A stretch of 64,000 nt of DNA from Nitrosopumilus sp. (lineage in GTDB: Archaea; Thermoproteota; Nitrososphaeria; Nitrososphaerales; Nitrosopumilaceae), in assembly GCA_965218695.1 (NCBI GenBank), contig OZ244651.1, positions 640,001 to 704,000 of the forward strand, written 5' to 3'. Below are positions 4,043 through 64,000 of the stretch, one piece after another. Position 1 is the stretch's first letter. Each line of letters begins with the position of its first letter. The position numbers were made by a program, and so were the translations under genes. The notes below the pieces were generated by a model. It was given only the letters and a program-made list of their open reading frames with translations, made no database searches and was not told the DNA's origin.

Positions 4043-4310
4043 GGCCGTTTTAAGCAAAAAACATCCCATAGTCCATGAGTGAATGCGCCTGCCACACCCC
4101 GACGCCGGTGTTGGACGAGGTAGCAGGAGAAACCGTCTGTTCCAAATGCGCGCGCGTGCTGGATGATTCAATGGAACAACCATGCAAGAACCAGGGCCAG
4201 AACCACATGGTGCTTGGAAACCGCGTGTCATCCACGAAAATACAGGGAAACGCCAAGATGCGGCGCGCCAGCAGATGTCCAACAGGGTCGACCAAAAAGG
4301 AATGGACACG

Positions 4311-5483
4311 AGACATAATCCGTAATTAGAAATTGTACATATTTTCCTATACTGTGTAGGTTTTTTGACTCCTATCAGGTTGCTTCCCGGACTAGGAGAA
4401 CCCTGAGGTTGGCAAATCCGCAGACGATGTCATTGACGGTGTCGTATTTTTTCAGGCGGTTTCGGTAGACACCGCTCATTATGCGAAACCGTTTGACCCT
4501 GCGGATGGCGTGCTCCACATACACCCGTGCCTTTGAGTGCTTTTTGTTGAATTCCTTCTGCTCGGGGGACAATTCTGCGCCTTTTTGCTTCTTGTACGGC
4601 ACTACTGCATCCCGGTCAGGAAATTCTTTGTTGATCCCCTGGTATCCGTTGTCCAGGATCTCTCTGACTTTGATCCTTTCCTTGTCCTTGCTCCCGTCCT
4701 TGCGTGGAAGGTTGTCAGGGAATGTCGGGTGTTTCTTTTTGAATACTGCAAAGTCGTGGATCCTGCCCGGGGAATGCCGGGTCTTGTGAATGATGAGGCC
4801 ATCTGTGGCCGACGTGTACTGGATCTTGGACGTGTGCCTGTGTGCCTTGCCCGAGTAGTGGGACCGTTCCATGTCCTTGCGTCCGGGACGTTGTATCTGC
4901 TGCTCTGAGGCATCAATCAGGGCAGTCAGGCCCGGAATGATCTCCTCAAGATCGTCAAGCGTCTTGGTGGCCTTGATGTTGGCGTAGATCTTTGACGGAA
5001 GCGGAACGCACTGCCGGATCGACGGCTCCAGTGCCCCCATGCTGCGGGACACGCTAGCCTGGCCCATCTGAAACACCATGGCAAGAAGATCCTGCGTAGC
5101 GTATGTCCTGTAATAAAACAGGACCAGAAGAAACCTGTTTTTCAGATCCAGTTTCCACCTGCGTCCGGCACCAATGCCGCGCACCCTGCTTCTTTTGGCG
5201 AGTCGCTTTTGCTCTGCCTTGGGGTATTTTTTTGCCAGCCGCCCTGCCACCAAATTAAATTCGGAGACTGTCAGTCCAGTGCACCGGATGAACAGTTTGG
5301 GCTTTTTTGCTAATTTGTCGTATAATGACATGCTTTGACATTGGCAATCAGAATAAAACACGGCTGACGTATAGTTTTGATCATCGGGCAAGTTCGAATT
5401 GACATGCAATTCCATGCAGTCAGCCAGATTTGTCCTGCAATGCGTCCAATCTCGTGATTATGCCCAATTACGGATGATGTCTC
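4311..5483 (-). mobile_element. IS5-family (ISL2/IS702-like) element, copy 1
   Basis: TIR (G)AGACATAATCCGTAATT / AATTACGGATGATGTCTC; 2-bp CG duplication; near-identical to 61253-62425. Confidence 0.92.
4375..5331 (-). CDS. IS5-family transposase (HTH_Tnp_4 + DDE_Tnp_4)
   Basis: LIDASE, ILDNGYQG, RVYVEHAIRRVKRF triad. Confidence 0.92.
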   Translation of the reverse strand: MSLYDKLAKKPKLFIRCTGLTVSEFNLVAGRLAKKYPKAEQKRLAKRSRVRGIGAGRRWKLDLKNRFLLVLFYYRTYATQDLLAMVFQMGQASVSRSMGALEPSIRQCVPLPSKIYANIKATKTLDDLEEIIPGLTALIDASEQQIQRPGRKDMERSHYSGKAHRHTSKIQYTSATDGLIIHKTRHSPGRIHDFAVFKKKHPTFPDNLPRKDGSKDKERIKVREILDNGYQGINKEFPDRDAVVPYKKQKGAELSPEQKEFNKKHSKARVYVEHAIRRVKRFRIMSGVYRNRLKKYDTVNDIVCGFANLRVLLVREAT

Positions 5484-6123
5484 CGGACTACATGATAAAA
5501 TCATGCTGCAACAAACTCTGGATTCCACAGACGGTAGCGGACCGCGCCATGATCATATTTGACAAGTTCAGGAAGAGTCTTGGCGGCGGAAACCCGGCCA
5601 ACCATACAGCGGCTGTCGTATACATGGCGTGTAGGGAGCGCGGCGTGGCGCGCAGCATGAAGGAGATATTTTCGGCACTTGACGCAGATTCCAAGAAGGC
5701 CCGCCGCGCGTATTACAAGCTGCACAAATCAATGGATGCTGTCTTGCCGGTCCCAGATGCGGCCGGTTTTGCCACGCGTTTGGCATCAGACCTCAACTTA
5801 CCAGAAAAGACGGCGCGCAGGGCGTTAAAGATACTGGAACGGTTGAACGATGCGGGCTTGACGACCGGACACGGTCCAACCATACTGGCCGCGTACGCCA
5901 CGTATGCCGCATTGAACCGGACAGAGGGCGTCACGCAAGGAATGATAGTCAAGGCGGCCGGGATATCCGAAGCTGTGCTGCGTGAGCTGGGCGTGGCAGT
6001 CAGGGCCGATGAGTTTGCAGTCAGGATGAACGCGACAGGTTCAGTCAGGTGAAATTTGTCTGAAATGTCGGAAAGAAAAAGAAGGATTTGCCCTTTATAC
6101 CGTTTTCATTTCTTATGCGTACA

Positions 6124-6255
6124 ATGAATGACGTCTGCGTGCCTGCAAACCCACTATGCACATCTTTGGATCCTGTGCGCATGACCAAAAAGATCCCCCC
6201 ACCCGGGGCGGGAATAATCAACGCTGAACGGCCGGAGGCCGCGCCGCGATGTTAG
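6124..6255 (+). CDS. Short leader ORF (43 aa) overlapping the pilin-like start
   Basis: MND...RPEAAPRC*; positional homolog 61149..61247 (MNG...HPEAAP*) behind the same promoter motif. Confidence 0.4.
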   Translation: MNDVCVPANPLCTSLDPVRMTKKIPPPGAGIINAERPEAAPRC

Positions 6256-6587
6256 TGTCCGGCATAGTCATAATCGTCCTGGTCGTGGCAGGCGCGGCAG
6301 TGATGTTCTTCTTGACAGAATCAAACAACCAGACCATAGCAGCGGGTACCATAATCGCCATACATGACAACGAGCGCGTCAAGGAAGACGTGGACATCGT
6401 GTGGGGCGGCCAGGACTTGAAGATGCACAACGCCGGGCCTGAGACGGAGATACTTGAATACCGCGTGCTTGATGATGACGGCACCCTACTTCGCGTCTGT
6501 ACGGTCGAACATGAGGTGGGAGCGTCCGTGAAAGAGACGGTCAATACGGCGGCATTCGACGAATGCTGGCAGGAGTTTTTGACATGA
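6249..6587 (+). CDS. Archaeal type IV pilin-like small protein
   Basis: N-terminal hydrophobic helix, amphipathic helix ending ERVKE, small beta domain with two Cys; no clear class III cleavage site. Confidence 0.6.
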   Translation: MLVSGIVIIVLVVAGAAVMFFLTESNNQTIAAGTIIAIHDNERVKEDVDIVWGGQDLKMHNAGPETEILEYRVLDDDGTLLRVCTVEHEVGASVKETVNTAAFDECWQEFLT

Positions 6588-9286
6588 GGACAAAACTGGC
6601 TGCAGTCGCATTGGTATTGGCAATAGCCGCCGCAGCATACGCGGGATTCGCAGAGGACGCGTTTGCCAAACAGCTCCAGGTGGTTACGTCGCGCGGCAAC
6701 GTCTTTACCGTAAAGGTTGACATACCGACCAACAGCACGCATACTGTCCTGGTAATCAACAGCACGCAAATAATCAACAGCACGCAGGTGATCAACAACA
6801 CCAACCCCGGGATAACCTTCCCGATGGAAATCGTCACGAAGAACGCAGAGGGCCACATCGTCTACGGGAACGGCACGAGTGGTGCAGAAAAGCCGCTGGA
6901 CCCGTACACGTTCCCAGGCGAGTTTGAGTTTGCAGCAGTCGTGCTGGACGCGGACGCCAAGAATACGATGCCCATACCCAAACTCCTGGCAAAATACGAG
7001 ATGGTTAATGACGATTCGCTGAACTGGATAGAGGACACCGACACCGGCGACAACATCCTGGTTCCGCTGGACGTGGATCCGGCAACATACGGGAACGGGT
7101 GGAAAGTGGAAGGCGATTGGACAGTACTTGACAACACTCCAGGGGAAAGCCGCAAGACACAGGCCAGCATAGACCTCCCGCTAAACGAGCAGCTCACGAT
7201 GAAGGGCGACATTTCAAGCGGCATGACGGTCCAAATCATATCGGTCGTACGGCCTTTCAACCCCAACACCGTCAGTTATTACAGTCAATACGTATCGTCT
7301 TCTTCTTCGTCTTTGGAAAAAAAGTATTTCGAGTATGACGGCCCGACATTCAGTTATTTTGGCAGTAAATACATACCCAAACAATGTACATGGTGGCCAA
7401 ACAGTTTGACATACCAGGGATTCAAGACCAACTATCCGAGTCCCGGACAGGGACTCGGGCCAAACCACATCGTCTATAATGGATACGGACCTACCAACGT
7501 GGCCACTAGCGCGGGCTGCGCAATACAACCACATATAACCACATACATAAATGGACCCGGGTCGAATATCGGATTCGACGGCGACCGATGGACAGGTTAT
7601 ACAATATACGGAGAGATGTTGAGAAGCACCAGCGGGCTTACCCTGTATCCAAACGTTTACGCTCTTGGCTGCCAGTCGTCAACGCACATAAGCGTAACGA
7701 CAAGTTATAGGGAAGGCGGAAGTAGCGGCATACACACCGTGAATGTGCCGTACACTAAAACGCCTACTGTGACTTGTGTCAGTGAACACGGATACCAAAA
7801 AATCACGAGAATTGACATCCCAGGCGAGTCCATACGAAAGAAAATAGAACGTGTTGGTTATGGTTCTGCTCCCACCTTGACGTTTTACGTGCCTGTGACT
7901 GCATCTGTCCGGATCGACATACCGCAAATACCGCCCACAATACAGGTGCTGCACTCGTTCAGCGGGCAAGACATTAGCCATCCTTTCACTATGCAGTCGT
8001 ACAGCGGAAACCTGTATCTCAGGACGGTCGGCGGTGACGCCACGTCGACGGCACAGATCAAGGTGTTTGAGGGAGAGGAGATCCCGCCGGCATTCATAGT
8101 TACGAACATGCCAGAGAATGCGCCGTACAGGATAACGGCCGACGGCATCACCATAATATCCGGCCTGACGTCGAGCGCAGGCGGCATAGAAGTCACTCCT
8201 GCAGACATGGATTTTGATTTCTTTGAGGGCAAGAATCTTGAACTCACGATATGGCCCGACTCCCTGTCCAGACGCGGAGGCAGCAGCGATGCCGTGATGT
8301 TTGACGCATACAACAAAGAAACCAAGGACTTTCGGTGGCACGTTCCAATCATATACGTGGCCGAATCCATGCTGCAGGTAAGCATAGATCAAGACGGCAT
8401 GGACATTGCCGGAGTCATATTGGAAGGCGGGTCTGACATCAGTTTTGATGGGCGCCAGGGGTTGTACAATGACGGGGACGAGTTGCTTGTCCCGCTGTAC
8501 CCGGATGCCAATGCGATTGCAATCAGGGTCAACGGGGAATGGGCAGACGGCATCCTGGCAGATATCCAGCAGTTTCCGCATTCTGTAAGAATGACAGAGG
8601 CCGAAAACTCCGCGACCAAATACGCTTTCAGCAATGACCTGGGATTCACGGTGGCGCGCGCGTCTGACAGGATCGCCGCGTTTGCCAACAGCACCGGCGA
8701 CATGCAGATCCAATTCGTCAATGCCAAGGCGTCCGGAAGCGCGGAATTCCCGTTTGACTCCTATTACTATGGAAACTTTACCCCGCCCGGAGCGCCTGAC
8801 ACGGAGGAGTGTTTCGTGTATGACAGGTGCGGTGTATGGGTGGACAGTGCCACGCATGCAGACCCGACCAGCGTCAGTTGGGGCCCGATAACGCAGTGGG
8901 TAATAGACAACAATCCGGCGGGGGTGCAGCAGGTGATGGCAGCACAGGGGCCGCTCACGGTATACGTCAATGCGTACGTAAACGGCGAATGGGTCCAAGG
9001 CCAGACGATATTTGAAAGCACGGACGTCACTGTCGTGCCCGGCGATTACTTGGACAGGCACCTCGTATACCAGTACAACGGCGGCCTGGAATACGGCATG
9101 GAAGACGACGATGCAACCATGCGCGTGCCGGTCCAATCAGGCGACTTTGTGGAGTTTGTGGTGAGCTCCAGAACAATGGCGGCCTCGACTCCGGTGTATG
9201 CAGGCAGCGGCACTTCAGCAGACGTATGGTGGGGAAACAGCACGTCGCGAATCCACAGCGGCCTCATGCAAGTCAGCATGCCGTGA
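6584..9286 (+). CDS. Large secreted beta-rich protein (putative adhesin) with variable central domain
   Basis: ATGA overlap with upstream gene, signal peptide ending AYA/AFA, paralog at 62757. Confidence 0.85.
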   Translation: MRTKLAAVALVLAIAAAAYAGFAEDAFAKQLQVVTSRGNVFTVKVDIPTNSTHTVLVINSTQIINSTQVINNTNPGITFPMEIVTKNAEGHIVYGNGTSGAEKPLDPYTFPGEFEFAAVVLDADAKNTMPIPKLLAKYEMVNDDSLNWIEDTDTGDNILVPLDVDPATYGNGWKVEGDWTVLDNTPGESRKTQASIDLPLNEQLTMKGDISSGMTVQIISVVRPFNPNTVSYYSQYVSSSSSSLEKKYFEYDGPTFSYFGSKYIPKQCTWWPNSLTYQGFKTNYPSPGQGLGPNHIVYNGYGPTNVATSAGCAIQPHITTYINGPGSNIGFDGDRWTGYTIYGEMLRSTSGLTLYPNVYALGCQSSTHISVTTSYREGGSSGIHTVNVPYTKTPTVTCVSEHGYQKITRIDIPGESIRKKIERVGYGSAPTLTFYVPVTASVRIDIPQIPPTIQVLHSFSGQDISHPFTMQSYSGNLYLRTVGGDATSTAQIKVFEGEEIPPAFIVTNMPENAPYRITADGITIISGLTSSAGGIEVTPADMDFDFFEGKNLELTIWPDSLSRRGGSSDAVMFDAYNKETKDFRWHVPIIYVAESMLQVSIDQDGMDIAGVILEGGSDISFDGRQGLYNDGDELLVPLYPDANAIAIRVNGEWADGILADIQQFPHSVRMTEAENSATKYAFSNDLGFTVARASDRIAAFANSTGDMQIQFVNAKASGSAEFPFDSYYYGNFTPPGAPDTEECFVYDRCGVWVDSATHADPTSVSWGPITQWVIDNNPAGVQQVMAAQGPLTVYVNAYVNGEWVQGQTIFESTDVTVVPGDYLDRHLVYQYNGGLEYGMEDDDATMRVPVQSGDFVEFVVSSRTMAASTPVYAGSGTSADVWWGNSTSRIHSGLMQVSMP

Positions 9287-9917
9287 TTGGCCAAAACGCG
9301 GCATAATTGAAAGATGGTACACCATACTGTACCAACAACCGTACATGCCATGTTTACTTATCATGAATACACATCCCTTTATTACTGACGGAACATCAAT
9401 AATGTCATGAACCTGACCAACCCACGGATATTCATCCCGCTGGCGTGGCTTGGCTGCACGGTCGCGTATTTCGTGGCGGCGTTCTGGCTGCCGAGGCCGG
9501 ACTTTGCGGTCCAGGAGACGGCAGTGCCGGTAAGCGGCATACTTGAGATTTGGTGGCACGAGATAATGAGGAGCGCGCCAGTGCTGATACCGGGGTTTGG
9601 TGCAGTATGGGGAATCCTTTCCAGCATGGGCTTTGCCCACTCCGTGTTCTTCATGTCAGAGAACGGTATGTTTGCCATGGGACCGCAGTTCATGTTCGTG
9701 ACGTTTCCGTTCCTTTCACTGTACTTGTTGGCGCAGTGCATCATGATCAGGCGCGGAATCCTGATACTCATGGCCTTGCGGCAGCCTGCAGAAACCGAAG
9801 AGGTGGCAGCAGCGTATAGTGCCCATCATAAAGATCCGGAACGGTAAACCCAGTTTTGGTTCCGGTACTGCCTGAATAATCAAAACCTTAAGATCAGCGA
9901 TACCTCCGCGCTTAATC

Positions 9918-11018
9918 ATGGCTGGTACAAAACGCCGAAACGAAAACATACCCAAGGGAGACGCGTTCATGGCAGGCACATCCATGAGGGAGATCCAAGA
10001 GGCCCTCAAAAAAGAGAAGAACGGCAAAGCAGTCAACATACTGCTTGCCTGCATGTGGAGGCGTGAGGGAGAAGACGGGGTATGGATCGCAGGCAAGCTG
10101 CACGTGCCGGTCAGTACCATTTACGACCGGCTGCACCGCATGCACTTGGGCGGTCTTGATGCATGTCCTGACAAGACCAAGCCCGGAAGGCCAAGAAAGA
10201 TCCAGCCAGAAATCCATTCAAAGATATCCGAGTCCATCGACAGGCAGCCGGGCGGATGTGGGATAAAATCCAACGTCTGGACCGGAAGGCTGATTCTGAT
10301 CATGATCTCCAGTCTGTTCTCCATTGACAACGTCTCTCCCAGTACGGCATACAGGACGATGCACAGGCTGAACAAGACATACAGAAAACCCGGAAGGCCG
10401 CGCCACGGCCGCTCGCCTTCTGACGAGGTAAAGGCAGAATTTAAGCGCGGCCTGGCAAAGGAGATTTTTAGCAATACCGTGGATGGACACCGCCTCTTCT
10501 GGATGGACGAGTCCCATTTTACCACAAAAACGATCCGCGGCATGACCTGGCTTGCGCGTGGCCTGTCAATACCGCAGGTGATCAAGCCGTTTGGCAGGAG
10601 CTACACGTGCTTTGGGGCACTGGGATTGGACGGTCTGCTACACCACAGGTACTATGACTGCGGCAACACCGATTCGATGATTGATTTTGTCAATGGCCTG
10701 CACGATGCCTACGGGAAGGTACTCTTGGTGATGGACAATGCATCCATCCACAAATCCAAAAAGCTGATGGCAGAGTTGAAAAAGTACGATGGGGACGTCA
10801 GGATTGCCTACCAGCCGACATATTCGCCGGATCTCAACCCAGTCGAGATGGTCTGGAAAGAACTCAAGAGGTACGTCGCCAACGGCCTGTACCGGCGTGT
10901 GGAGGACATGACGGGAGCCATGGACGAGATGATTCAGTCAGGCACGGTAAGTCTGCCCCAACTGCCAGAATACGCGACAGATGCAATCAGGCGCGCCAAG
11001 GCGACTGCTGCTGCCTGA
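9918..11018 (+). CDS. IS630 transposase
   Basis: WMDESHF, VMDNASIH, YSPDLNPVEMVW. Confidence 0.95.
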   Translation: MAGTKRRNENIPKGDAFMAGTSMREIQEALKKEKNGKAVNILLACMWRREGEDGVWIAGKLHVPVSTIYDRLHRMHLGGLDACPDKTKPGRPRKIQPEIHSKISESIDRQPGGCGIKSNVWTGRLILIMISSLFSIDNVSPSTAYRTMHRLNKTYRKPGRPRHGRSPSDEVKAEFKRGLAKEIFSNTVDGHRLFWMDESHFTTKTIRGMTWLARGLSIPQVIKPFGRSYTCFGALGLDGLLHHRYYDCGNTDSMIDFVNGLHDAYGKVLLVMDNASIHKSKKLMAELKKYDGDVRIAYQPTYSPDLNPVEMVWKELKRYVANGLYRRVEDMTGAMDEMIQSGTVSLPQLPEYATDAIRRAKATAAA

Positions 11019-11052
11019 CGACTTGGGGGCGAGGTGCGCGTACCTGTGGGAG

Positions 11053-11340
11053 TCAGGCCCGATCCTTCGAGTATGGATCACGACACTCGTGCCGCGCATC
11101 TAGCCCGCCGTGGTGCATCCGGCACAGCCAGTCCTCGACTGTATCGGGTGACATGTAAAACATGTCTGCAATCTCCGAGCACCCGTCACCTTCCTTGCGC
11201 CGTAGGCAAATGAGTAGCGGAAAACTGCTCCAGGCATACCTGTCCATCCCGTGTACTGCCCGGATGTCATTGGCAGATATGCCCTCCATGAATTTGTCCC
11301 CCTTGGGCACCTTGTCGTCCGGGTGTTTTTCTCCGGTCAC
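11053..11340 (-). CDS. HTH-only paralog of the IS630 transposase N-terminus
   Basis: PKGDKFMEG...LLICLRRKEG...IA...RMHHGGLDA aligns with transposase PKGDAFMAG...LLACMWRREG...IA...RMHLGGLDA. Confidence 0.75.
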   Translation of the reverse strand: MTGEKHPDDKVPKGDKFMEGISANDIRAVHGMDRYAWSSFPLLICLRRKEGDGCSEIADMFYMSPDTVEDWLCRMHHGGLDARHECRDPYSKDRA

Positions 11341-12089
11341 GGCATGGTCTGGGAGTGGAATGATCTAAACGTTTCTGCTGTCCCGGTAGTGCGATGCCGG
11401 ACGCGTGACGTGCCAAAATCCCCGTCACCATTCCGGATATTTATGACGGGTACTATACCACGAGTCCGAACAGACCGCTGGATGGAGCGAAAGCGGTAGC
11501 GGTGGATATGACGCCTCCTTTATTGACAAACTTGCTCCGATGGCAAGGCCGTTCCTGCGAGATGCCGGCATATTCTTCGCGCTGCTGTTCGTCTCGGCTG
11601 TCCTGACGTTCGTGGCATGGGGCGAGGCGCCGTCAAGCACGACGCTCCAGGCATATTGGACATACAACGGAATGCTTGACTATTGGGCAACACTGCCAGA
11701 AAGGATCGGTGAATTTGTGCCTGTCGTTGACTGGGACACCATGGTTGGCACCGCGTGGGAATCGCTTGTTTGATCCCGGCCGGCGTGCCATGACGAGGCG
11801 TGAATCTGCCATCGCGTGAATGACCCTCAATTGGAACCATCCCGCGGTACGTACGCATGCATGCACAGTTTCTGCAACGCGATGCTGTCTGTCTTGCCGC
11901 GCAAATGCCAGGTCATCTGCCAAACCATATTGTAAACGGCTCCGAGGTGGCACCGCCAAGATGTGTATATCTTAAGCTCATTCCGGCCAGATTGCCTTCG
12001 TACCGGTGCTCAAATTCGGCATGGCCTTTCCATGACATGCTGCCATGAAGCATTATGTGTCGCGTAGGGTCGGTGCGCGTCCCTCTGTC

Positions 12090-13634
12090 GTATGAATTCA
12101 CCTGCCCCTTATATCAGTCGACCAACTTCTTCGGCCACGCTCTTGCCATGTGCCCTCCACGTGAGGACGCACGTGACAAAATCTGCAAGGCGCTTCATGG
12201 CCTTGGAGCCGCCCTTGGTCTGCCCGCTTATCTTGCGGAACACCACCAGGTAGCGCAGCGCCCTCTCGCTGGCGTTGTTTGTAGGCTCGACGCCGGGATG
12301 CTCCAGGAACGCAAACATGCGGTGCAGGTGCCTCTCGAGCTTGTCCAGCACCTTTTGCATGTCGTCATCGTCACCACCACCACCGGCATCGCGGTACCGG
12401 TCAAGCACGTCCTGCATGGTGCGGTTCATCGTATGCCGCAGCTGTGGCGAGCGCGCCTCCTGCGCGGCCAGCAGTTTTGCCCTCTCAAACACCCACTTGT
12501 GGTCCTCGTGGAGCTGCCGCCGCCGCCGCCGGACACGTTTGGTCTCGGGAGGCACGGCGCAGTATTTTTCTGCCAGGTGCCTTGTCTGCCGGAGGTCGTG
12601 CGCCCAGCACGACTGGTGCATGCCGTCCTTGTCAAACCTGTCATATCCGGTGTACCCGTCAGTTATCGCCACCCCGTCAAATTTGTCCATGGCATCGAGC
12701 ATGAGCGTGGCCCTGCTCTGGCTGATGTTTATTGCGATGTTTTTGCCCGACTGTGCCACGTTTGCGTGTACCTTCTGGCCGTCGTTTCGCCAGCTGGTTT
12801 CGTCAAACCCGGCACAGTCAGAAGCCTCCACTTCCCCGAGGATCCTGCCTGCCTCGTGGCCCGAGGCGTCCCCGACGCGTGCCATGATGTTGTTGACGGT
12901 GGATCCTGCAAGCATAATGCCCGTTATGGAGCGCACCGCGACCGAGATTCCCTTGAGCGGCACCCGTGCCGCGCGCAGTTCTGAGACGAGTCCGACCATG
13001 CCCTTGCCGAAGTTGCCCCGCCGCGGCAGGTCGTTTGGAGCATCTTCCCTGCGGCCGCATGAGCCGCATACTGCAGTCTCCACGCGGTGCCGCGTCTCGC
13101 ACGCAGTCACCCTGATGTCCGTGATGTCCCGCACGCGCGGACTGCCAATCGCCATCCGGCCGCCGCCGCCGCCGCACCCGCATTCCGGGAGCACCGGCAC
13201 CCGCCTCCTGCCCGACTTCCTGCGCCCGAACCTGTGGGATACGGTCCTTTCCGGGTCGTGGGGGCGCGACGCCCCCGCGTGTCCCTTTCTTCCCCCGCGC
13301 TTGGATTTGCCCTCCTTTTCCTGTTTTTTTGCCCGCTCCCTCTTCTGGGCCTTCCATTCCAGGGATTCAGATGAGGGCGGCGTGTTGGGGTTTGTATAGT
13401 ATGTCATGAGGCGTTCGCTGTACCCCAAGGCCCTTTCAAGACGTTCTATCCTGCCAAGTGCCTTCTCAAGATCGGATTTGAGGGTGGCAATCTCCCGGTT
13501 CCGTGCTAGGAGTTCCTCTTTTAGCTGGTCCCTGCTCATGTGCCGTGAATTTACCATGTAAAGTGATGTGTATTGCCAGCATATGGATCAGTATGATCAT
13601 TTTTTTGTGACAGGAAGGACAGGTGAATTCATAC
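12090..13634 (-). mobile_element. IS66-family single-ORF (ISBst12-like) element, copy 1
   Basis: TIR GTATGAATTCACCTG; 8-bp TSD CCTCTGTC. Confidence 0.95.
12109..13557 (-). CDS. IS66 transposase
   Basis: NTPPSS, FDETSW, TDGY, QSCWAH, PTNNASERALR. Confidence 0.95.
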   Translation of the reverse strand: MVNSRHMSRDQLKEELLARNREIATLKSDLEKALGRIERLERALGYSERLMTYYTNPNTPPSSESLEWKAQKRERAKKQEKEGKSKRGGRKGHAGASRPHDPERTVSHRFGRRKSGRRRVPVLPECGCGGGGGRMAIGSPRVRDITDIRVTACETRHRVETAVCGSCGRREDAPNDLPRRGNFGKGMVGLVSELRAARVPLKGISVAVRSITGIMLAGSTVNNIMARVGDASGHEAGRILGEVEASDCAGFDETSWRNDGQKVHANVAQSGKNIAINISQSRATLMLDAMDKFDGVAITDGYTGYDRFDKDGMHQSCWAHDLRQTRHLAEKYCAVPPETKRVRRRRRQLHEDHKWVFERAKLLAAQEARSPQLRHTMNRTMQDVLDRYRDAGGGGDDDDMQKVLDKLERHLHRMFAFLEHPGVEPTNNASERALRYLVVFRKISGQTKGGSKAMKRLADFVTCVLTWRAHGKSVAEEVGRLI

Positions 13635-17976: not shown

Positions 17977-20900
17977 CTAGTTTACAGTTATTGCTATCGT
18001 TGCGGTTGGTGAGAGTGCAGTCGGGTTGTCGATGGATTCCCACACGAACGCAGTCACGTCGTACGTGCCTGCCTCGTCTGGAGTCCAAGAGACTGCCGGA
18101 CTGAGTGACTGTGATGCCGTCAGCGAACCCTTGATCCAGTCAAGTGAGACCGTGACGCCGTTTTCATCCTGTACCTGTATGAGGTAGGCAAACGCCTGTT
18201 CCTTGTCCTGTCCGTTGGTCACGTCAGACTCTAGCTGAATCTGGGTGTCAACGGATACGGTGTCCAAGGTGTTGCCGAATGAATCGACTGCTCGCAGGTC
18301 AGAGATTGGTGCCCTCTCCAGTGGCGGCACGATGGTACCGATCAGAGTGGTGGCGCCAACTCGGAGCCTTTCTGTCTCCTTGAACGGTGCCGGCAGCGTG
18401 TTGTCGTAGTACTGCGCGGTTACGGTGTCGCCCTCTACTACCCTGAGCCTGTGACCAGATGTGTCAACTCCAACACCAAAGAAGACGGTGCCTTCAAAGA
18501 TGCCGGTTGCAGCATTGGTCTCAGTCACGGTGAGGTCGATTCCGCCTCCGTCAGAGTCGGACCAGACGGTCACGTCAAAGTTGTCGACTGCCTCCGGGTT
18601 CAGGTTCATGTCTGGATCTATGATCCTGACTATTCCTGATCCGCTGGCAGGATAACTTGCCTCGAGCCACTGGACCTCTCCTACGTTCCACCTGATTAGG
18701 GCAGAGTTGCTTACTGTCTCGCCGTCAGAGAACTTGAATGATACGGATATTCCGCTTTCGCTGTCGGTTCCTATCTCGCCGTTGGTCGGTCCGCTTCCAT
18801 CCGGAGATGTCCTTCCGGTCGCGTCGCCGTCGCTGCCGTCGCCGTCTGCGTCATGATTGGAGAATCCTGTCAGGATTACCTCGCCTGTGAAGATGCCGGT
18901 GTCGGCACCAGTCTCGACAAGCTTGTACTCCTCAATGGCCTCTCCGCGTGTGGATACCCTTACCGGGTAGTCGTCGTTGTTGCCTATCTCGTCAACCTGG
19001 TCTGCATCGATGTTGTGGTCCGGTGCGACTACTGTCACGTAGACCTTGTCGGTCCACGTGTAGACGCGCTGGTCCAGCTCGATGGTTGCGCCAAAGTTGG
19101 ACGTGTAGATGGTGGCAGTTACGGATTCGTCCTTGTCTCCGACATAGTCAGAGCCGGATGGTCCCCAGTCTGTATACTCCAGTGTGATCTCCTCACCCCT
19201 CTCGAGGCGGTCATCGTCTATCTCGTTTGGAATGCTGATCACGACCTGGAATATTCCAGTGTTGGTGCCGGTTTCAAGGAGATTGGAGGGCGTCGCGCCG
19301 AACACGCCATCATCAAGTGTGGCTGTGCCCGCGTCAGAGTCCCATTCTATCAGGTCAAGGGTGTACGTCTCTGTGGAGTCGCTGTCAAGGTTCAGGTCGG
19401 GTTCGATGAGTGTCAGTATCGCGTCGCTTCCGATGATGTACGCAGTCTGGTCGGACTGGAGTACGCCGTTTCGCAAGTCGAACGTTGCAGAGTCGGTAAC
19501 GGTGTTTGGACTGCCTGATGCGTCGGATGGATCCTCGTATTCAGCATGGAGAATGTCTCCCTGCATGATACAGTTTTCCAGCTCGTCTGGACATTTGTTG
19601 CTGGATGGACCAGTCGCGTATGTGATGGTCATCTCGTGCTCAAATATGCCAGAATTGGGTGCAGTCTCAGAGATTGCATTGGCTGCTGAGTCTCCAACAG
19701 GAGCAAATTCGTAGGGAGCAGAACCGCCGCGGAGTACGCTCACCTTAAGGGATGCGTCTTCGATGGTGTCTATTCCGTTGGCTGACGTGTCATAGTCAGG
19801 ATCGTTGATGCTGACATAGACGGTCAGGTCGCCTGCTGAAAGGGTATCGCCTGCTGCCGTCTTAAAGGAGGTTGCACTGAATGGCACCGGGTAGACGGTC
19901 CTGTCAAGGCTTACGGATCCTGTTGCGGATCGTATTCCCGCAGAAGCGCTTACGCTGATGGTTGAACCAGAGTCGTCCCTGAAGTCAAGATACTTGACTG
20001 AGATGTCAGCGCCTGTGACGCCGGCTGGACTTCCGTTAGGATGACAGTAGTTTGCCGGAACCGCGAAGGTACCGGTGAACACGCCTGTGGCGGCTCCTGT
20101 CTCCTGAAGCGTAAAGTCTGTAGCGTCAAGTCCGGTCATGCCGTCACATCCTGCCTCCCATGGGTTGCTGTCGATGGATACGATGAGCAGTTCGCCGTTT
20201 GTGAATTCGGTCGAGGCGACGCCGACAATGTCACTGTCGATCGTCGTATAGACGTCGGCCTTCCCGCTATCAACGTTCAGGTCTGCGTCCTCTACGGTCA
20301 CTGTGGCTGTGTCTGCCACCTTGTAGGCGTCAGAGTCGAAGTATACCGCACCCGAGTGTGTCGGGGTGGCTGCCTCGGCCGTGAACAGCGTCTCGTCGCC
20401 ATTGGTGTCGATGTCAAGATAGTCTACGGAAACTGAGCTGTCGTCGGATATCAGTATGATGTTGTCATCGATTGCCTGAATGCCGGTGTATGTGTCATCA
20501 TTCAGTATGTTGACCTGGTTGAGTCCGATGTACTCCAGAGTGCCTGTAAAGTCACTGCTGTTGTCTCCGTCCTCTTGGAGTTCAAGCCTGTAGATGGCGT
20601 TGTTGACCAAGTCGGTTCCGTCTATAAGACCGAACGAGAATACGTCGATCACGATCATGTCATCTGATGCGTCTCCACTGTATCTGATGTTGACTGCATA
20701 GTCGTCATCGATGTACTCAGTGACGTCTACCAGACCACGTCCATCAGTATCCACGCGATTACTATTGATAGTAACCGATGCATCGTCGCCAAGTGCGCTT
20801 ACATCATAGTTCAGCATGTGCACGCCTTCGAAGTTACCGTCCGGAATGTCCAAGGTTCCCGTGGCACTACCTGAAGTGGATGCGGCAATTCTGCCGTTAT

Positions 20901-22845
20901 CATCGCCTCCAAGTGTGAACGGTTCTCCAATCGTTATGGTTGGAATGATGTGGGATGATTTCGTAACCGATAGGTCGTCGTCGTTAAGTGAGTTGGTGTT
21001 GGCGTCACTGTCTGTCAGCGTGATGCCGATCTCCTCGCCAGAGTTCCATTCGTCACCTGCGTCTATTACGATGTTGGTCTCACCGAAGCCTATGGAGGAT
21101 GTCACGGTGTTGTCATATGTTACTGAAAATGACAGTCCCCTGTCGGCATTTGCGGTGGTGCGTACGTTTGGCGTGTCGCCGGGTGCGTTGGTGAATACTG
21201 AGGTGTTCGAGTCGTCCTCGCCGAATTCTATCAGGAATTCGTCTGTGCTGCTTGTGCTACAAGATTCAACACATTCTACCAGGGCGGTGTTGCCGTTGTT
21301 GTATTTGGAGAGGCTAAAGCCCTCGTCGGTTGAAACTGCGATTCCGTTACTGTCAGTGGGATCTGGGTTGTCAGTTACAGCATCACCAGATTCTGTAGTA
21401 TAGGTAGTATTTGCGGATTCAACATCATCATCGTATGTTGCATGTGCGCTACCTTCTACGGTGCCACCTGGGCCGTCACCTGCGATTACTTCGTATTCTG
21501 CCTGTGCGGTACCCTTGTATGCAGCATCGGCTGTATCTGTGATAGTTTTGTCTCCATTGACTGCGGTGTAGGTTGCATCAGCTGAGCCGTCCGCAACAAG
21601 TGCGGTCTGTGCAGCAGCGTCGCCGTCAGTCGCATAGGCAGGTGGAGTGCCGCCCTCATAGAAGGTACTAAGCTTGGTGTTGACAGCAGTTATGTAGGCA
21701 CCTGCATCGGGAACCGTATTGATGTCATCGAATGGTTCGAATCCGGCGATTATCTCGTACTCTAGCTGCGCGATGCCCTTGTAATTGGCTATCTCCACAG
21801 CTTCAATAGGATCGCTAAATTCGATGTCTTTGTCTCCTAGTACCTCTTGTGCGCGGTTCTGTTGTTCTACTGTCAGGGTGATGTCGTCAACGGCCTGAGT
21901 GGATCTAGTGATGGCAGCGTCTCTCTTTTCTGCGGCTTCAGCAATGGCTGTAGCCGGGACTGCTGCGGCGATCTTGGCGTCTCTATCTCTTTCGGCCTCG
22001 GTGATCTTGGCGTCTCTATCCACTATGGCTTTAGCCAAAGCAGCGTCTCTTTTGTCTATGGCGGCAGATTCGGCTTCAGCTCTGTCTGCATTGCCTTGAA
22101 CAGAGTTTGGAACGTCCCTGTAGTATGAGGTCCCATCACTGCCAAGGTACCAAGTATCCGCAGATGTTGGGTCCACGTTGAGTGCCTGGTCGTCGAGCGT
22201 GATTACCACGCCTGTACCCTGCGGGTATACCGACCTGTCGAGGCTTGCGCTCTCGGACGGATCGTCATAATCCATGGATACGGTCTGGTCTGCTCCCGGC
22301 CTCTCATAAACAACGTCAAATCCGCTGCTTAGATCCTCAATGAGTTGGACTCGATGGTCAGCAAATGGTGGGTCGCCAACAAGAGAATTAACTTCTGTAC
22401 AGCCTCGCATCGCAATATTATAGAGACCAGCGTCTGTTTGAACGGGTGCTAGTGCAGCCGTACAAGCATTGCCGTCGGCGTCGTTAGCTAAACCAGACCC
22501 CCGGATTTCATCAGCTGCAAAGTATCCATACCATGCACCAGAGAAAAATTTCATTCCAAGGCGGTTTCCGTCCACGGTTACTATTGGTCGGCTAGTATTT
22601 TCGTCAGTCAGATCGTCAATAATCACGACCTCCACTATGTTGGTCGCTGCTATCTCGTTGTCGGCGTTCTGTCCCTCCGCTGATACCTTCAGGTTCGGGT
22701 TGCTTGATATCTGTGCGGCCTGTGCCGGCTCCATGCCGGGTATGGCAAACGTGAGTCCGCCGGCCACCATTATCGCCATCAGTGCTATGCTTGTAAGGTT
22801 TCTTAGATCTGTATCACTAAATTGCTTTTTAGATTTGTTTTTCAT
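17977..22845 (-). CDS. Major S-layer protein (Nitrosopumilus SlaA type) with a large insertion
   Basis: LTS..LM.IM.AGG.TFAIPG signal, repeated ETG..TG.F.G modules, C-terminal FVWES.DNPTALSP. Confidence 0.9.
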   Translation of the reverse strand: MKNKSKKQFSDTDLRNLTSIALMAIMVAGGLTFAIPGMEPAQAAQISSNPNLKVSAEGQNADNEIAATNIVEVVIIDDLTDENTSRPIVTVDGNRLGMKFFSGAWYGYFAADEIRGSGLANDADGNACTAALAPVQTDAGLYNIAMRGCTEVNSLVGDPPFADHRVQLIEDLSSGFDVVYERPGADQTVSMDYDDPSESASLDRSVYPQGTGVVITLDDQALNVDPTSADTWYLGSDGTSYYRDVPNSVQGNADRAEAESAAIDKRDAALAKAIVDRDAKITEAERDRDAKIAAAVPATAIAEAAEKRDAAITRSTQAVDDITLTVEQQNRAQEVLGDKDIEFSDPIEAVEIANYKGIAQLEYEIIAGFEPFDDINTVPDAGAYITAVNTKLSTFYEGGTPPAYATDGDAAAQTALVADGSADATYTAVNGDKTITDTADAAYKGTAQAEYEVIAGDGPGGTVEGSAHATYDDDVESANTTYTTESGDAVTDNPDPTDSNGIAVSTDEGFSLSKYNNGNTALVECVESCSTSSTDEFLIEFGEDDSNTSVFTNAPGDTPNVRTTANADRGLSFSVTYDNTVTSSIGFGETNIVIDAGDEWNSGEEIGITLTDSDANTNSLNDDDLSVTKSSHIIPTITIGEPFTLGGDDNGRIAASTSGSATGTLDIPDGNFEGVHMLNYDVSALGDDASVTINSNRVDTDGRGLVDVTEYIDDDYAVNIRYSGDASDDMIVIDVFSFGLIDGTDLVNNAIYRLELQEDGDNSSDFTGTLEYIGLNQVNILNDDTYTGIQAIDDNIILISDDSSVSVDYLDIDTNGDETLFTAEAATPTHSGAVYFDSDAYKVADTATVTVEDADLNVDSGKADVYTTIDSDIVGVASTEFTNGELLIVSIDSNPWEAGCDGMTGLDATDFTLQETGAATGVFTGTFAVPANYCHPNGSPAGVTGADISVKYLDFRDDSGSTISVSASAGIRSATGSVSLDRTVYPVPFSATSFKTAAGDTLSAGDLTVYVSINDPDYDTSANGIDTIEDASLKVSVLRGGSAPYEFAPVGDSAANAISETAPNSGIFEHEMTITYATGPSSNKCPDELENCIMQGDILHAEYEDPSDASGSPNTVTDSATFDLRNGVLQSDQTAYIIGSDAILTLIEPDLNLDSDSTETYTLDLIEWDSDAGTATLDDGVFGATPSNLLETGTNTGIFQVVISIPNEIDDDRLERGEEITLEYTDWGPSGSDYVGDKDESVTATIYTSNFGATIELDQRVYTWTDKVYVTVVAPDHNIDADQVDEIGNNDDYPVRVSTRGEAIEEYKLVETGADTGIFTGEVILTGFSNHDADGDGSDGDATGRTSPDGSGPTNGEIGTDSESGISVSFKFSDGETVSNSALIRWNVGEVQWLEASYPASGSGIVRIIDPDMNLNPEAVDNFDVTVWSDSDGGGIDLTVTETNAATGIFEGTVFFGVGVDTSGHRLRVVEGDTVTAQYYDNTLPAPFKETERLRVGATTLIGTIVPPLERAPISDLRAVDSFGNTLDTVSVDTQIQLESDVTNGQDKEQAFAYLIQVQDENGVTVSLDWIKGSLTASQSLSPAVSWTPDEAGTYDVTAFVWESIDNPTALSPTATIAITVN

Positions 22846-23078
22846 GTTATTGGAATTCAATCAGGAAGACGATCCTTAGGTGTAATGAGCAACTGATCTA
22901 CATTTTTCCCCGCAGGACGGCATCCGGGTTTTCGCGGCGTTTCCCCCCAACACGAATTACATTTCTCAATGCATTCGCACACAAGTGCCAGCCGCAAGGA
23001 TGCGCGAACATGCAGCAACCGGTGTACCATCTGCAGCACGCAACCAAATTTATAATGATGAAACAGACCGGCAGTGAA

Positions 23079-60875: not shown

Positions 60876-61148
60876 CCCAGGGCGCCGTTGCGATGCCGCC
60901 ACGTGCGGGGCATGCGGCGAACTGACTAAGATTTTGGCAATCGCCTGTAACTGTTAAGGAGTTCATGCCGATGCCGGATCCCGGCAGCCGCATCCTGCCA
61001 GGTCGTGGCAGGACTACACAACCAGACGGCGTACCGAAGGGTCATCGCCAAGTTGGGAGCCGGTCCAATCGTGAACGTTTGGGCGTGAACGCGCGCAAGG
61101 GAAGCGGTAATTTGCCCCTTATACCATTATTCGGCCCTTGCTGGCACG

Positions 61149-61247
61149 ATGAATGGCGCATGTGCACGTGTAACTATGATGGCATATCGCGCTGCATTGG
61201 CCCAGCCCCGCACCAGAGACGCCAGGCATCCGGAGGCTGCGCCATAA
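61149..61247 (+). CDS. Short leader ORF (32 aa), TAATG-coupled to the pilin-like start
   Basis: MNG...RHPEAAP*; homolog of 6124..6255. Confidence 0.4.
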   Translation: MNGACARVTMMAYRAALAQPRTRDARHPEAAP

Positions 61248-61252
61248 TGCTG

Positions 61253-62425
61253 AGACATAATCCGTAATTAGAAATTGTACATATTTTCCTATACTGTGTA
61301 GGTTTTTTGACTCCTATCAGGTTGCTTCCCGGACTAGGAGAACCCTGAGGTTGGCAAATCCGCAGACGATGTCATTGACGGTGTCGTATTTTTTCAGGCG
61401 GTTTCGGTAGACACCGCTCATTATGCGAAACCGTTTGACCCTGCGGATGGCATGCTTCACATACACCCGTGCCTTTGAGTGCTTTTTGTTGAATTCCTTC
61501 TGCTCGGGGGACAATTCTGCGCCTTTTTGCTTCTTGTACGGCACTACTGCATCCCGGTCAGGAAATTCTTTGTTGATCCCCTGGTATCCGTTGTCCAGGA
61601 TCTCTCTGACTTTGATCCTTTCCTTGTCCTTGCTCCCGTCCTTGCGTGGAAGGTTGTCAGGGAATGTCGGGTGTTTCTTCTTGAATACTGCAAAGTCGTG
61701 GATCCTGCCCGGGGAATGCCGGGTCTTGTGAAGGATGAGGCCGTCCGTGGCCGACGTGTACTGGACCTTGGACGTGTGCCTGTGTGCCTTGCCCGAGTAG
61801 TGGGACCGTTCCATGTCCTTGCGTCCGGGACGCTGTATCTGCTGCTCGGAGGCATCAATCAGGGCAGTCAGGCCAGGAATGATCTCCTCAAGATCGTCAA
61901 GCGTCTTGGTGGCCTTGATGTTGGCGTAGATCTTTGACGGAAGCGGAACGCACTGCCGGATCGACGGCTCCAGTGCCCCCATGCTGCGGGACACACTGGC
62001 CTGACCCACATGGAACGTCAGGGCAAGAAGATCCTGCGTAGCGTATGTCCTGTAATAAAACAGGACCAGAAGAAACCTGTTTTTCAGATCCAGTTTCCAC
62101 CTGCGTCCGGCACCAATGCCGCGCACCCTGCTTCTTTTGGCGAGTCGCTTTTGCTCTGCCTTGGGGTATTTTTTTGCCAGCCGCCCTGCCACCAAATTAA
62201 ATTCGGAGACTGTCAGTCCAGTGCACCGGATGAACAGTTTGGGCTTTTTTGCTAATTTGTCGTATAATGACATGCTTTGACATTGGCAATCAGAATAAAA
62301 CACGGCTGACGTATAGTTTTGATCATCGGGCAAGTTCGAATTGACATGCAATTCCATGCAGTCAGCCAGATTTGTCCTGCAATGCGTCCAATCTCGTGAT
62401 TATGCCCAATTACGGATGATGTCTC
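61253..62425 (-). mobile_element. IS5-family (ISL2-like) element, copy 2; transposase 61317..62273 with catalytic E->K
   Basis: Same TIRs as copy 1; 2-bp TG duplication; VYVKHAI instead of VYVEHAI. Confidence 0.92.
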
Positions 62426-62760
62426 TGGTCTCTGGAATAGCCATCATCATCCTGGTGGTGGCAGGCGTGGCAGTCATGTTTGTAATCATGCAGGAGAATG
62501 CAGACGTTGCAGACAATGTAGTTGATGTTGCAAATCACAACAACGAGCGCATCAAGGAAGACGTAGACATCGTGTGGAACGGCCAAGACTTGAAGATGCA
62601 CAACGCCGGCCCGGAGATAGACATACTGGAATACAGGGTGTTGGACGATGACGGCGCCATACTCCGCATCTGTCCAGTCGAGCAGGAAGTCGGCTCGTCA
62701 AAGAAGGAAGTCGTGGACACCACGCCATTCGATGAATGCTGGAGGGAATTCTTGACATGA
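62416..62760 (+). CDS. Pilin-like protein copy 2 (native ATG at 61247; IS inserted at codon 2)
   Basis: Paralog of 6249..6587; in-frame ATGATG supplied by the IS end. Confidence 0.7.
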   Translation: MMSLVSGIAIIILVVAGVAVMFVIMQENADVADNVVDVANHNNERIKEDVDIVWNGQDLKMHNAGPEIDILEYRVLDDDGAILRICPVEQEVGSSKKEVVDTTPFDECWREFLT

Positions 62761-64000
62761 GGGCAAAACTGGCTGCAGCCGTCGTCGTGTTTGCCGTAAT
62801 TGGCGCGGCGTACGCCGGACTTGCAGAGGACGCGTTTGCCAAACAGCTCCAGATAACGACGGCCCGCGGCAACGTCTTTACCGTAAAGGTTGACATGCCG
62901 GTCAACAGCACGCACACGATCCAAATAATCAACAACATGCAGGTAATCAACAACACCGACCCCGGGATAACCTTCCCGATGGACATAGTCACGAAGAACG
63001 CAGAGGGCCACGTCGTCTACGGGAACGGCACGATTGGTGCAGAAAAGCCGCTGGACCCGTACACGTTTCCCGGAGAGTTTGAGTTTGTCGCGGCCGTGCT
63101 GGACACAGACGCCAAGAATACCATGCCCATACCCAAACTCTTGGCAAAATACGAGATGATTAATGACGACTCGCTGAACTGGATAGAGGACACCGACGCC
63201 GGGGACAACATCCTGGTTCCGCTTGACGTGGATCCTGCAACATACGGGAACGGATGGAAGGTGGAAGGAGATTGGACAGTACTGGACAACTCCCCCGGGG
63301 AAAACCGCAAGACACGGGCCAGCATAGACCTCCCGCTAAACGAGATGCTTACGATGAAGGGCGAGATTTCAAGCGGCATGACGGTTCAAATCATATCAGT
63401 CGTGCAACCTTTCAATCCCAACACAGTCTATAGTTACAATAAACACGTAACGTCGTCTTCTTTGTCTTTGGAAAAAAATTACATAGAGTATGACGGCCCG
63501 ACGTACAATGGCCGCATACCCAACCAATGTTCATGGTGGCCAAGCGAATTGACGAAGCAGGGATTCAAGACCAATTATCCAAGCCCCGGAGACGGACTCG
63601 GACCCAATCCAACCGTCTATTATGGGCACAATGAGGTAGCCACGAGCGCGGGCTGCGCCATAGAGTCGCACCTGAATCCTAATAATTTCAATGGTGCCTG
63701 GGATACGGGTCATACGATATACGCAGAGACACTACGCGGCGCCTACGGGCTCACCATTTATCCAAACGTCTACGCCCTTGGTTGCCAATCATCAACCCAC
63801 GTGAGCGTGTCGGCAAGCTACCGCATGGGCACGACCAGCGGCACGACCAGCGTGTCTGTACCGTATACGGGCACGCCGACGGTAAACTGTGTCAGTGAAC
63901 ACGGATACCAAAAAATCACGAGCATCAGCATCCCAAGCCAGTCAATAGAAAAAGAGATAGATCGTGTTGATTTGTTTGATTACACAAAAACGCTCTACAT
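62757..64000 (+). CDS. Large secreted protein copy 2 (runs off window)
   Basis: Hand translation open to window end; paralog of 6584..9286; ATGA overlap. Confidence 0.88.
   Translation, partial: MRAKLAAAVVVFAVIGAAYAGLAEDAFAKQLQITTARGNVFTVKVDMPVNSTHTIQIINNMQVINNTDPGITFPMDIVTKNAEGHVVYGNGTIGAEKPLDPYTFPGEFEFVAAVLDTDAKNTMPIPKLLAKYEMINDDSLNWIEDTDAGDNILVPLDVDPATYGNGWKVEGDWTVLDNSPGENRKTRASIDLPLNEMLTMKGEISSGMTVQIISVVQPFNPNTVYSYNKHVTSSSLSLEKNYIEYDGPTYNGRIPNQCSWWPSELTKQGFKTNYPSPGDGLGPNPTVYYGHNEVATSAGCAIESHLNPNNFNGAWDTGHTIYAETLRGAYGLTIYPNVYALGCQSSTHVSVSASYRMGTTSGTTSVSVPYTGTPTVNCVSEHGYQKITSISIPSQSIEKEIDRVDLFDYTKTLY

Follow-up and report, generated by a model that had tools for sequence, protein, structure and literature searches.

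A two-gene cassette for a pilin-like protein and a large secreted beta protein with a mosaic central domain in Nitrosopumilus, a candidate pilus-associated surface system

Type IV pilus loci of archaea often contain TFIIB homologues (PMC4858521), and all described integrative-conjugative elements (ICEs) of thaumarchaea carry TFIIB together with VirB4, TadC, FlaI and pilins (PMC6563490). An Ups/Bas-related pilus of ammonia-oxidising archaea has been described, whose function is unknown (PMC7554672), and a 2026 survey of archaeal type IV filaments proposes a possible role of Ig-rich accessory proteins in priming the cell wall for the filament (PMC13705601). Here we describe a 64,000-nucleotide stretch of Nitrosopumilus sp. 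(contig OZ244651.1, positions 640,001 to 704,000), called the window below. It holds two cassettes, each composed of a small pilin-like gene and a gene for a large secreted all-beta protein of ~900 amino acids (aa), which is labelled BIG. Copy 1 of BIG is contained in full. Our best reading, with a probability of about 0.5, is that BIG is a pilin-anchored pilus accessory protein or adhesin with an exchangeable head, which differs between the two copies by recombination.

The contig of the window is 2.46 Mb long and the whole archaeal genome is 2.63 Mb. The genome encodes an archaeal amoA; thus, the organism is an ammonia oxidiser. A whole-genome protein search revealed exactly two BIG cassettes. 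In both, the TGA of the small gene overlaps the ATG of BIG as ATGA, and the two cassettes with a pilin-like gene and an ATGA-coupled large secreted protein, as reported in a preliminary description of this DNA, are confirmed. Close homologues start at the Met encoded by the ATG at 6584, which is the likely start of BIG. Residue and codon positions are counted here in the open reading frame (ORF) open from 6563; the ATG at 6584 gives 900 aa. The coordinates of all features are listed in Table 1.

The 16-base motif ATTTGCCC(T/C)TTATACC is found genome-wide only at positions 6086 and 61110 of the window, with up to two mismatches allowed, and the ortholog in a related genome (G002) keeps it with one change. 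The promoter motif assigned earlier to both copies is therefore sustained. Because the motif contains the TATA-like TTTATA, we can fairly infer a common promoter for both cassettes. The short leader ORF ending in PEAAP, also proposed earlier, fails: the frames at 6088-6255 and 61149-61247 match only in the last five residues, and the frame in G002 stops after nine codons. The likeness comes from a conserved DNA string, CCGGAGGCyGCGCC, immediately upstream of the small-gene ATG; this string looks like a GGAGG ribosome-binding site. Near position 9302, a loose contig end in the assembly of another organism (run X5) shows the end of a BIG-like gene running into a promoter-like motif, ATTTACCCTTTATACCATTATTC. 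This hints that the cassettes are perhaps tandem in that organism.

The small protein has an N-terminal hydrophobic helix and a beta-rich part in the sequences and in a nine-row alignment, which fits a feature of archaeal type IV pilins. With a profile of the small protein, 24 BIG loci were examined. It matched the N-terminus of BIG itself in nine loci and a separate gene directly upstream in six; nothing was detected in the other nine, three of which appear fused by eye. No internal signal peptide is present in the fused forms of BIG. Split forms, those of the window among them, begin with a Sec-type signal, followed at once by the best-conserved strand of the family, (V/I)(V/I)T..GN(V/I)F. 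This distribution of fused and split forms indicates that, in the lineage of the window, a giant pilin-like protein exists in split form. The earlier proposal of a pilin and a large secreted protein on a pilus is strengthened by the helix-plus-beta module, by its fusion to BIG in 9/24 loci and by the pilus genes nearby in relatives.

A complex prediction for aa 28-112 of the small protein and aa 36-237 of BIG weakly suggests that the small module may dock on the N-terminal domain (N-domain) of BIG. The score was 0.41 (0.00 for the best of three controls), where the pass mark is reached by 58/80 solved complexes and 2/110 mismatched pairs, and at scores of 0.60 or lower it is reached by only 7/80 solved complexes and both of those mismatched pairs. 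Contacts were at least 62% concordant between runs, and the predicted local distance difference test (pLDDT) of the partners was at least 52.

Neither BIG nor the small protein has a match in Pfam, NCBIfam or PHROG. At E ≤ 0.001, BIG matches 58 of 1.84 billion representative proteins, most of them over aa ~460-907 only and some also over aa ~8-150. Among 400 other genomes of the order, a profile search detected BIG homologues in 30/112 members of the same taxonomic family as the organism and in 0/288 genomes from 19 other families. Pattern searches with P0001 gave 23 matches in public genome contigs, and 200 pattern matches were obtained in metagenome contigs; none was a relative. Literature searches found no description of the BIG family, although the supplementary arCOG tables of pilus and mobile-element papers, which lie outside these searches, may list it.

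The full-length AlphaFold model of BIG (58 sequences, mean pLDDT 70.8) is all-beta, with confident N-domain and aa 460-907. The central domain was modelled poorly, with pLDDT below 50 at residues 232-353 of the full-length model and a mean pLDDT of 43.5 when it was modelled alone from seven sequences. Foldseek against PDB returned nothing at E ≤ 0.001, ESM Atlas gave no usable match, and a profile run against PDB sequences gave one chance-level row. By VIA-align, only the last ~240 aa were matched, at Z 8-10, which only slightly exceeds the usual background Z of 7-8; the matches are to many unrelated jelly-rolls (TNF/C1q-like, Pgp3 C-domain, fibre tips).

The genes around BIG in related genomes point to a pilus. 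A T2SSE ATPase and/or a membrane protein of ~630 aa lies within about 8.5 kb of BIG in 10/22 loci from other genomes. Among the same 22 loci, 11 have another secreted protein of ~940 aa (cluster c1_940), 10 have a secreted protein of ~360 aa, and three have an AAA_10 ATPase. The linked ATPase is FlaI/BasE-like (PF00437, E 4e-34; NF053672, E 7e-90), the platform protein is UpsF/BasF-like (E 4e-32), and the AAA_10 protein is VirB4-like; all these model scores fall below the curated cut-offs (e.g., 108-112 bits against 400), which marks the proteins as relatives, not orthologues. Fifteen genomes have BIG and a high-scoring platform gene on one contig, and in 14/15 the distance between the two is 3-50 kb; a platform match is present in 99/151 genomes, in a tally that includes three genomes flagged as unpublished.

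The genome of the window itself has two colinear islands outside the window, A (C1:528-551 kb) and B (C1:716-744 kb), which are 71-84% identical in DNA. Their genes encode a FlaI-like ATPase, an UpsF-like platform, large secreted proteins, TFB homologues, an ArdC N-terminal domain and a VirB4-like ATPase, which combines AAA_10 with a TraG P-loop domain (718 kb and 530 kb on C1). BIG copy 2 is 12 kb from island B. Copy 1 is 95 kb away from island A, and additional blocks of homology lie in between. The two islands differ in the side of the pilus module on which BIG is found.

The two BIG copies are 84% identical overall, and the divergence is unevenly distributed. The N-domain (aa 36-237) shows 88% aa identity, with synonymous divergence (dS) 0.28, nonsynonymous divergence (dN) 0.06 and dN/dS 0.22. 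The corresponding values are 63% with indels, 0.86, 0.28 and 0.32 in the centre (aa 238-446), and 92%, 0.23, 0.04 and 0.18 in the C-terminal part (aa 447-907). Synonymous divergence is therefore about three times higher in the centre (0.86 vs. 0.23-0.28). A two-breakpoint maximum chi-square scan placed the divergent block at codons ~262-447, where 30.8% of nucleotides differ, compared with 9.3% outside; the chi2 of 163 was reached in 0/200 permutations (permutation maximum 17.2). The 3' edge of the block is sharp, with identity rising from 58% to 98% within about 30 bases, and the 5' edge is gradual. GC content is 0.47-0.50 in the centre and 0.54-0.56 in the flanks, and T-ending codons in copy 1 make up 22-29% and 10-14%, respectively. 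The constant N-terminal part, the variable centre and the excess of T-ending codons in the variable part had all been seen in the preliminary description, to which the C-terminal likeness was not visible. Since silent sites have diverged about threefold more as well, the centre would be older or foreign DNA, not a target of diversification at the amino-acid level. The central difference is most likely a recombinational mosaic, not hypermutation.

A comparison among alleles is consistent with this. A profile of the central domain among 88 family members found only seven close sequences: the two window copies and five public clusters. These seven domains fall into three head types on a common framework, in which three Cys are invariant and the fourth is shifted by two residues. 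The framework blocks include ATSAGC, PNVYALGCQSSTH and GYQKIT. Of the invariant blocks listed earlier, QGFKTNYPSPG.GLGPN is constant only between the two copies, not in the third allele type. Between copy 1 and P0005, identity falls from 93% in the N-domain to 43% in the first half of the centre, and it is 87% in aa 591-700 (C2) and 60% in aa 701-790 (C3). P0005 and P0006 are 87% identical in the first half of the centre and 59% in C2, and P0006 and P0007 are 92% identical in C2. The segment identities disagree among alleles, which indicates that segments have been reassorted. The centre appears as the most divergent of several polymorphic blocks.

These observations can be combined as follows. 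The small pilin-like anchor, translationally coupled to the ~900-aa Sec-secreted BIG, would form a two-part surface protein. In the fused relatives, anchor and BIG are one giant pilin-like polypeptide encoded among Ups/Bas-like type IV pilus genes, and those genes lie inside islands with VirB4-like and ArdC-like genes and TFB homologues, resembling thaumarchaeal ICEs. BIG would ride on the pilus or at its base. The split form would be held by the conserved N-terminal beta-hairpin docking onto the anchor module, and the central Cys-braced domain would be exposed as a head for binding or recognition. By analogy with PilV and PilY1-type proteins, BIG may act in adhesion or partner recognition. 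The head difference would be an old allelic difference that homologous recombination or gene conversion, among alleles and from one island to the other, has maintained or introduced.

Several points weigh against the reading of BIG as a pilin-anchored adhesin. The class III signal peptide of archaeal pilins has a K/R-G/A cleavage site before the helix; the small proteins have no evident motif of this kind. A start as MAGGRAA-MLVSG is conceivable in the G002 ortholog, but the corresponding ATG is ACG in window copy 1; in other homologues the hydrophobic stretch comes first. The small protein (P0003) matched zero Pfam families at E up to 1, Pilin_N (PF07790) included. The cassettes of the window adjoin neither the ATPase nor the platform gene, the nearest platform genes being 36 kb and 96 kb away. 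BIG and the platform gene are about 470 kb apart in one related genome (G385), another (G018) has BIG without a platform match, and loci from related genomes are non-independent samples.

The remaining points concern the islands, the head and the state of the cassettes. None of the genome's tyrosine recombinase (PF00589) matches is near the islands, where attachment sites were not searched; "ICE" is thus a resemblance only. Difficulty in aligning the loops could account for part of the raised dS, and the gap-free windows 361-400 and 391-430 still show dS of 1.16 and 0.62. The only other genome found with two BIG copies (G292, loci L057 and L058), which also has two platform genes, has copies 90% identical with differences along the full length and no divergent centre; if anything, its Cys-rich centre is better conserved than the rest. 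Head divergence is therefore no rule of the BIG family. Finally, insertion sequences (ISs) occupy regulatory positions of both cassettes, the G002 ortholog is also interrupted by an IS, and the system may be decaying in this genome.

BIG may instead be a structural part of the pilus machine, spanning the envelope or serving as an S-layer anchor, comparable to the archaellum proteins of ArlF/ArlG type with a helix plus a beta-sandwich, and changes in its variable domain would then follow the fast-evolving S-layer or glycans of the organism itself. The small module is indeed a helix plus a beta domain without an evident prepilin cleavage motif, other large secreted proteins lie beside BIG (c1_940 in 11 loci; a 1627-aa surface-type protein duplicated along with BIG), and the Ig-rich accessory proteins proposed to prime the cell wall (PMC13705601) would be a precedent. 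The profile of the small protein, however, has no significant match to solved chains, the best relevant row being a "Flagellin" chain at E = 1, and the patchy distribution in 30/112 genomes fits an accessory gene better than a core machine part. The present evidence contains no direct discriminator between a structural part and an adhesin, and we consider the structural role unlikely overall.

The insertions are relevant to a further explanation, in which the cassettes are remnants of mobile islands under relaxed constraint and the centre merely drifts faster. The genome is unusually rich in ISs, with 19 and 23 near-full-length copies of two types. The former is an element of 1174 bp with a DDE_Tnp_4 transposase. 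Its two window copies, 98% identical, sever a TFB-like gene upstream of copy 1 and separate the copy-2 promoter from its small gene (61252-62425); the latter insertion is absent from the preliminary description. The element ends in ...ATGATGTCTC and gives an in-frame ATG ATG to the downstream gene at both insertions in the window. The copy-2 small protein begins with MMSLVSG after the insertion, and its native start was probably MLVSG. The gene for a membrane protein that follows copy 1 is interrupted at its 9816/9817 junction by an IS630-like element (9817-11455). These insertions and the interrupted G002 copy would be expected of remnants. Both reading frames of 885-907 aa are nevertheless intact, and dN/dS is 0.18-0.32 throughout. 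Relaxation lifts dN, not dS, and here dS is about three times higher in the centre; the sharp 3' breakpoint and the reassortment of segments point to recombination. Simple decay is thus rather improbable as the origin of the pattern.

Other features of the neighbourhood can be listed here. In the severed TFB-like gene, the N-terminal Cys stretch is read from its motif as a putative zinc ribbon, with no family match. About ten TFB-like genes are present genome-wide (17 repeat matches). An IS66-family element has two copies in the window (12109-13557 and 43706-45148) and 23 near-full-length matches genome-wide. In G002, the BIG gene (locus L012) is interrupted at about 7219-8277 by an IS-like insert with a 352-aa ORF, which sits almost exactly on the boundary between N-domain and central cassette. 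The 1627-aa surface-type protein is encoded downstream of BIG copy 1 at 17977-22860 on the minus strand, and its homologue lies downstream of copy 2 (C1:706379-712096). The two genes show 88% nucleotide identity over 1.8 kb, and the homologue is split in two by an IS630-like element.

Table 1. Features of the two BIG cassettes and their surroundings (positions in the window).
Feature	Position	Strand	Basis or remark
TFB/TFIIB-like N-terminal fragment, Cys-x-Cys ... Cys-x2-Cys stretch, severed by IS	4072..4309	+	stop-to-stop frame 4072-4329
1174-bp IS in TFB-like gene	4310..5483	-	transposase 4375-5415
TFB/TFIIB-like C-terminal part, two cyclin-type TFIIB repeats	5484..6052	+	Pfam PF00382, E 9.9e-22
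Promoter-like motif ATTTGCCCTTTATACC, copy 1	6086..6101	+	holds TATA-like TTTATA; unique to the two cassettes
Conserved string CCGGAGGCCGCGCC, just upstream of small-gene ATG	6232..6248	+	contains GGAGG
Small protein copy 1, 112 aa, N-terminal hydrophobic helix and beta module, pilin-like anchor (putative)	6249..6587	+	sequence and nine-row alignment
BIG copy 1, Sec-type signal peptide, then conserved strand KQLQVVTSRGNVF	6584..9286	+	ORF, homologue starts, model
BIG copy 1, N-terminal beta domain, aa 36-237	6668..7273	+	copies 88% identical
BIG copy 1, central four-Cys cassette, aa 238-446	7274..7900	+	63% identical, indels, lower GC, sharp 3' boundary
BIG copy 1, C-terminal beta domains, aa 447-907, final ~240 aa jelly-roll	7901..9283	+	copies 92% identical
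Membrane-protein gene downstream of BIG copy 1, member of duplicated unit	9407..9816	+	cut by IS630-like element
Promoter-like motif ATTTGCCCCTTATACC, copy 2	61110..61125	+	
1174-bp IS, same family (98% identical), just after start codon of copy-2 small gene	61252..62425	-	
Small protein copy 2	62419..62760	+	start ATG from IS end
BIG copy 2, 885-aa ORF from 62736	62757..64000	+	ends at 65393, past the window; central cassette 63429 to about 64010

It is very improbable that BIG is the receptor-binding fibre of an integrated virus. Phage fibre tips and viral capsid proteins are indeed among the middling fold matches of its C-terminal jelly-roll (Z 8-10; usual background 7-8), and TFB-like genes are found on archaeal mobile elements (PMC6563490). 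The absence of PHROG matches extends beyond BIG and the small protein to most neighbours. No relative was found in 50,697 phage records, in plasmid records or, with the patterns used, in viral contigs, where all 41 pattern matches were unrelated. The neighbours of BIG are genes of pilus and conjugation type, not capsid or packaging genes. The display on a virion fibre suggested earlier gains no support from these searches.

The central domain had been viewed earlier as an antibody-like, ligand-binding domain diversified across paralogs, with a diversity-generating retroelement (DGR) among the possible sources. The variable proteins of DGRs have a conserved scaffold bearing variable loops, and this is the likeness to BIG; the difference is that the three defining features tested, a reverse transcriptase, a template repeat and adenine-specific changes, are absent here. 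RVT_1 (PF00078) had zero matches in the genome, which is 99.99% complete, and the control search was positive in 3/14 control genomes. A word-7 blastn search of the central 627 nucleotides against the genome returned only the sequence itself and its paralog (69.5% identity). No excess of adenine changes was found between the copies, with all four bases involved; the differing sites have A in copy 1 in 33/93 cases for aa 238-360 and 22/78 for aa 361-446, in a comparison of two paralogs with each other without a template repeat. Shufflon features are also lacking: no further copies of the central DNA exist genome-wide, and the three tyrosine recombinase matches (C9, C1 2.26 Mb and C1 1.61 Mb) lie neither near the cassettes nor in the 520-760 kb region. 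Six read runs from three studies contain the stretch, and no RNA run is listed among them. Contigs of four of the runs, aligned at 80% likeness, map both paralogs to the stretch, and the "other letters" are mostly the second copy; assembled contigs drop rare variants and are uninformative on loop variants within the population. With only two copies, raised dS, a dN/dS of 0.32 and the uniform G292 pair in addition, the antibody-like view is not upheld. Diversification in place, by a DGR or by shufflon-like cassette switching, would suit framework blocks alternating with variable Y/G/N/S-rich loops and the odd codon composition, and is already largely refuted by the lack of a reverse transcriptase, a third central copy, an adenine excess and a nearby recombinase and by the divergence of synonymous sites. 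Recombination by itself can give rise to constant flanks around a variable middle; no diversifying machine is needed.

Ammonia-oxidising archaea have a major part in the nitrogen cycle, and there is hardly any work on their pili, cell-cell contacts and gene exchange. If BIG is a pilin-anchored adhesin, it would provide the Ups/Bas-related pilus with a concrete and testable surface component, made up of a defined anchor, a conserved strand for docking and a head that can be exchanged. It would also be an instance from nature of one gene that occurs both fused and split.

Among described systems, the accessory proteins of archaeal type IV pili (Makarova et al. 2016, PMC4858521; PMC13705601) share with BIG a large secreted beta-rich protein accompanied by pilin-like genes, a FlaI-type ATPase, a TadC/UpsF-type platform and a TFIIB homologue. 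BIG differs in having no match to a named family and in its confinement to one family of ammonia oxidisers, and it may already have an arCOG number. With the Ups/Bas-related pilus of ammonia-oxidising archaea (Abby et al. 2020, PMC7554672), the likeness lies in the linked ATPase and platform proteins, which score best against the BasE/FlaI and UpsF/BasF models, far below the cut-offs. The thaumarchaeal ICEs (Krupovic et al. 2019, PMC6563490) likewise have VirB4-like, FlaI-like, TadC-like, pilin-like and TFIIB genes together. The islands here add an ArdC N-terminal domain, and unlike in those elements, no integrase was found nearby.

The bacterial tip complexes of PilC/PilY1 with PilK-type minor pilins and of TadG/CpaL (PMC13533445) offer a large adhesin joined to or docked on a pilin-like module, with the key strand in cis or in trans. 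No homology of BIG to tip proteins of PilY1/PilC, TadG/CpaL or CofB type was detected by sequence profile, Foldseek or VIA-align, and the conserved strand is N-terminal in BIG but C-terminal in theirs. The closest functional analogy is to the PilV shufflon adhesins of IncI plasmids (TP114, PMC9045228), in which the exchangeable domain of a pilus-borne minor pilin of a conjugative element sets the partner. The locus described here has no extra cassettes or adjacent recombinase; its variants reside in two separate full-length genes. A tentative extension, on the unlikely side, is that the central cassette determines the partner specificity of a conjugation-linked Ups/Bas-like pilus, with island-specific types exchanged between lineages by recombination and the anchor docking in cis or in trans. 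If the head does set partner choice for conjugative islands, this would bear on the spread of mobile DNA among ammonia-oxidising archaea. The system would then be an archaeal, recombination-based counterpart of the PilV shufflon, whose split form, with its newly acquired Sec signal, would parallel the logic of PilK and PilY1.

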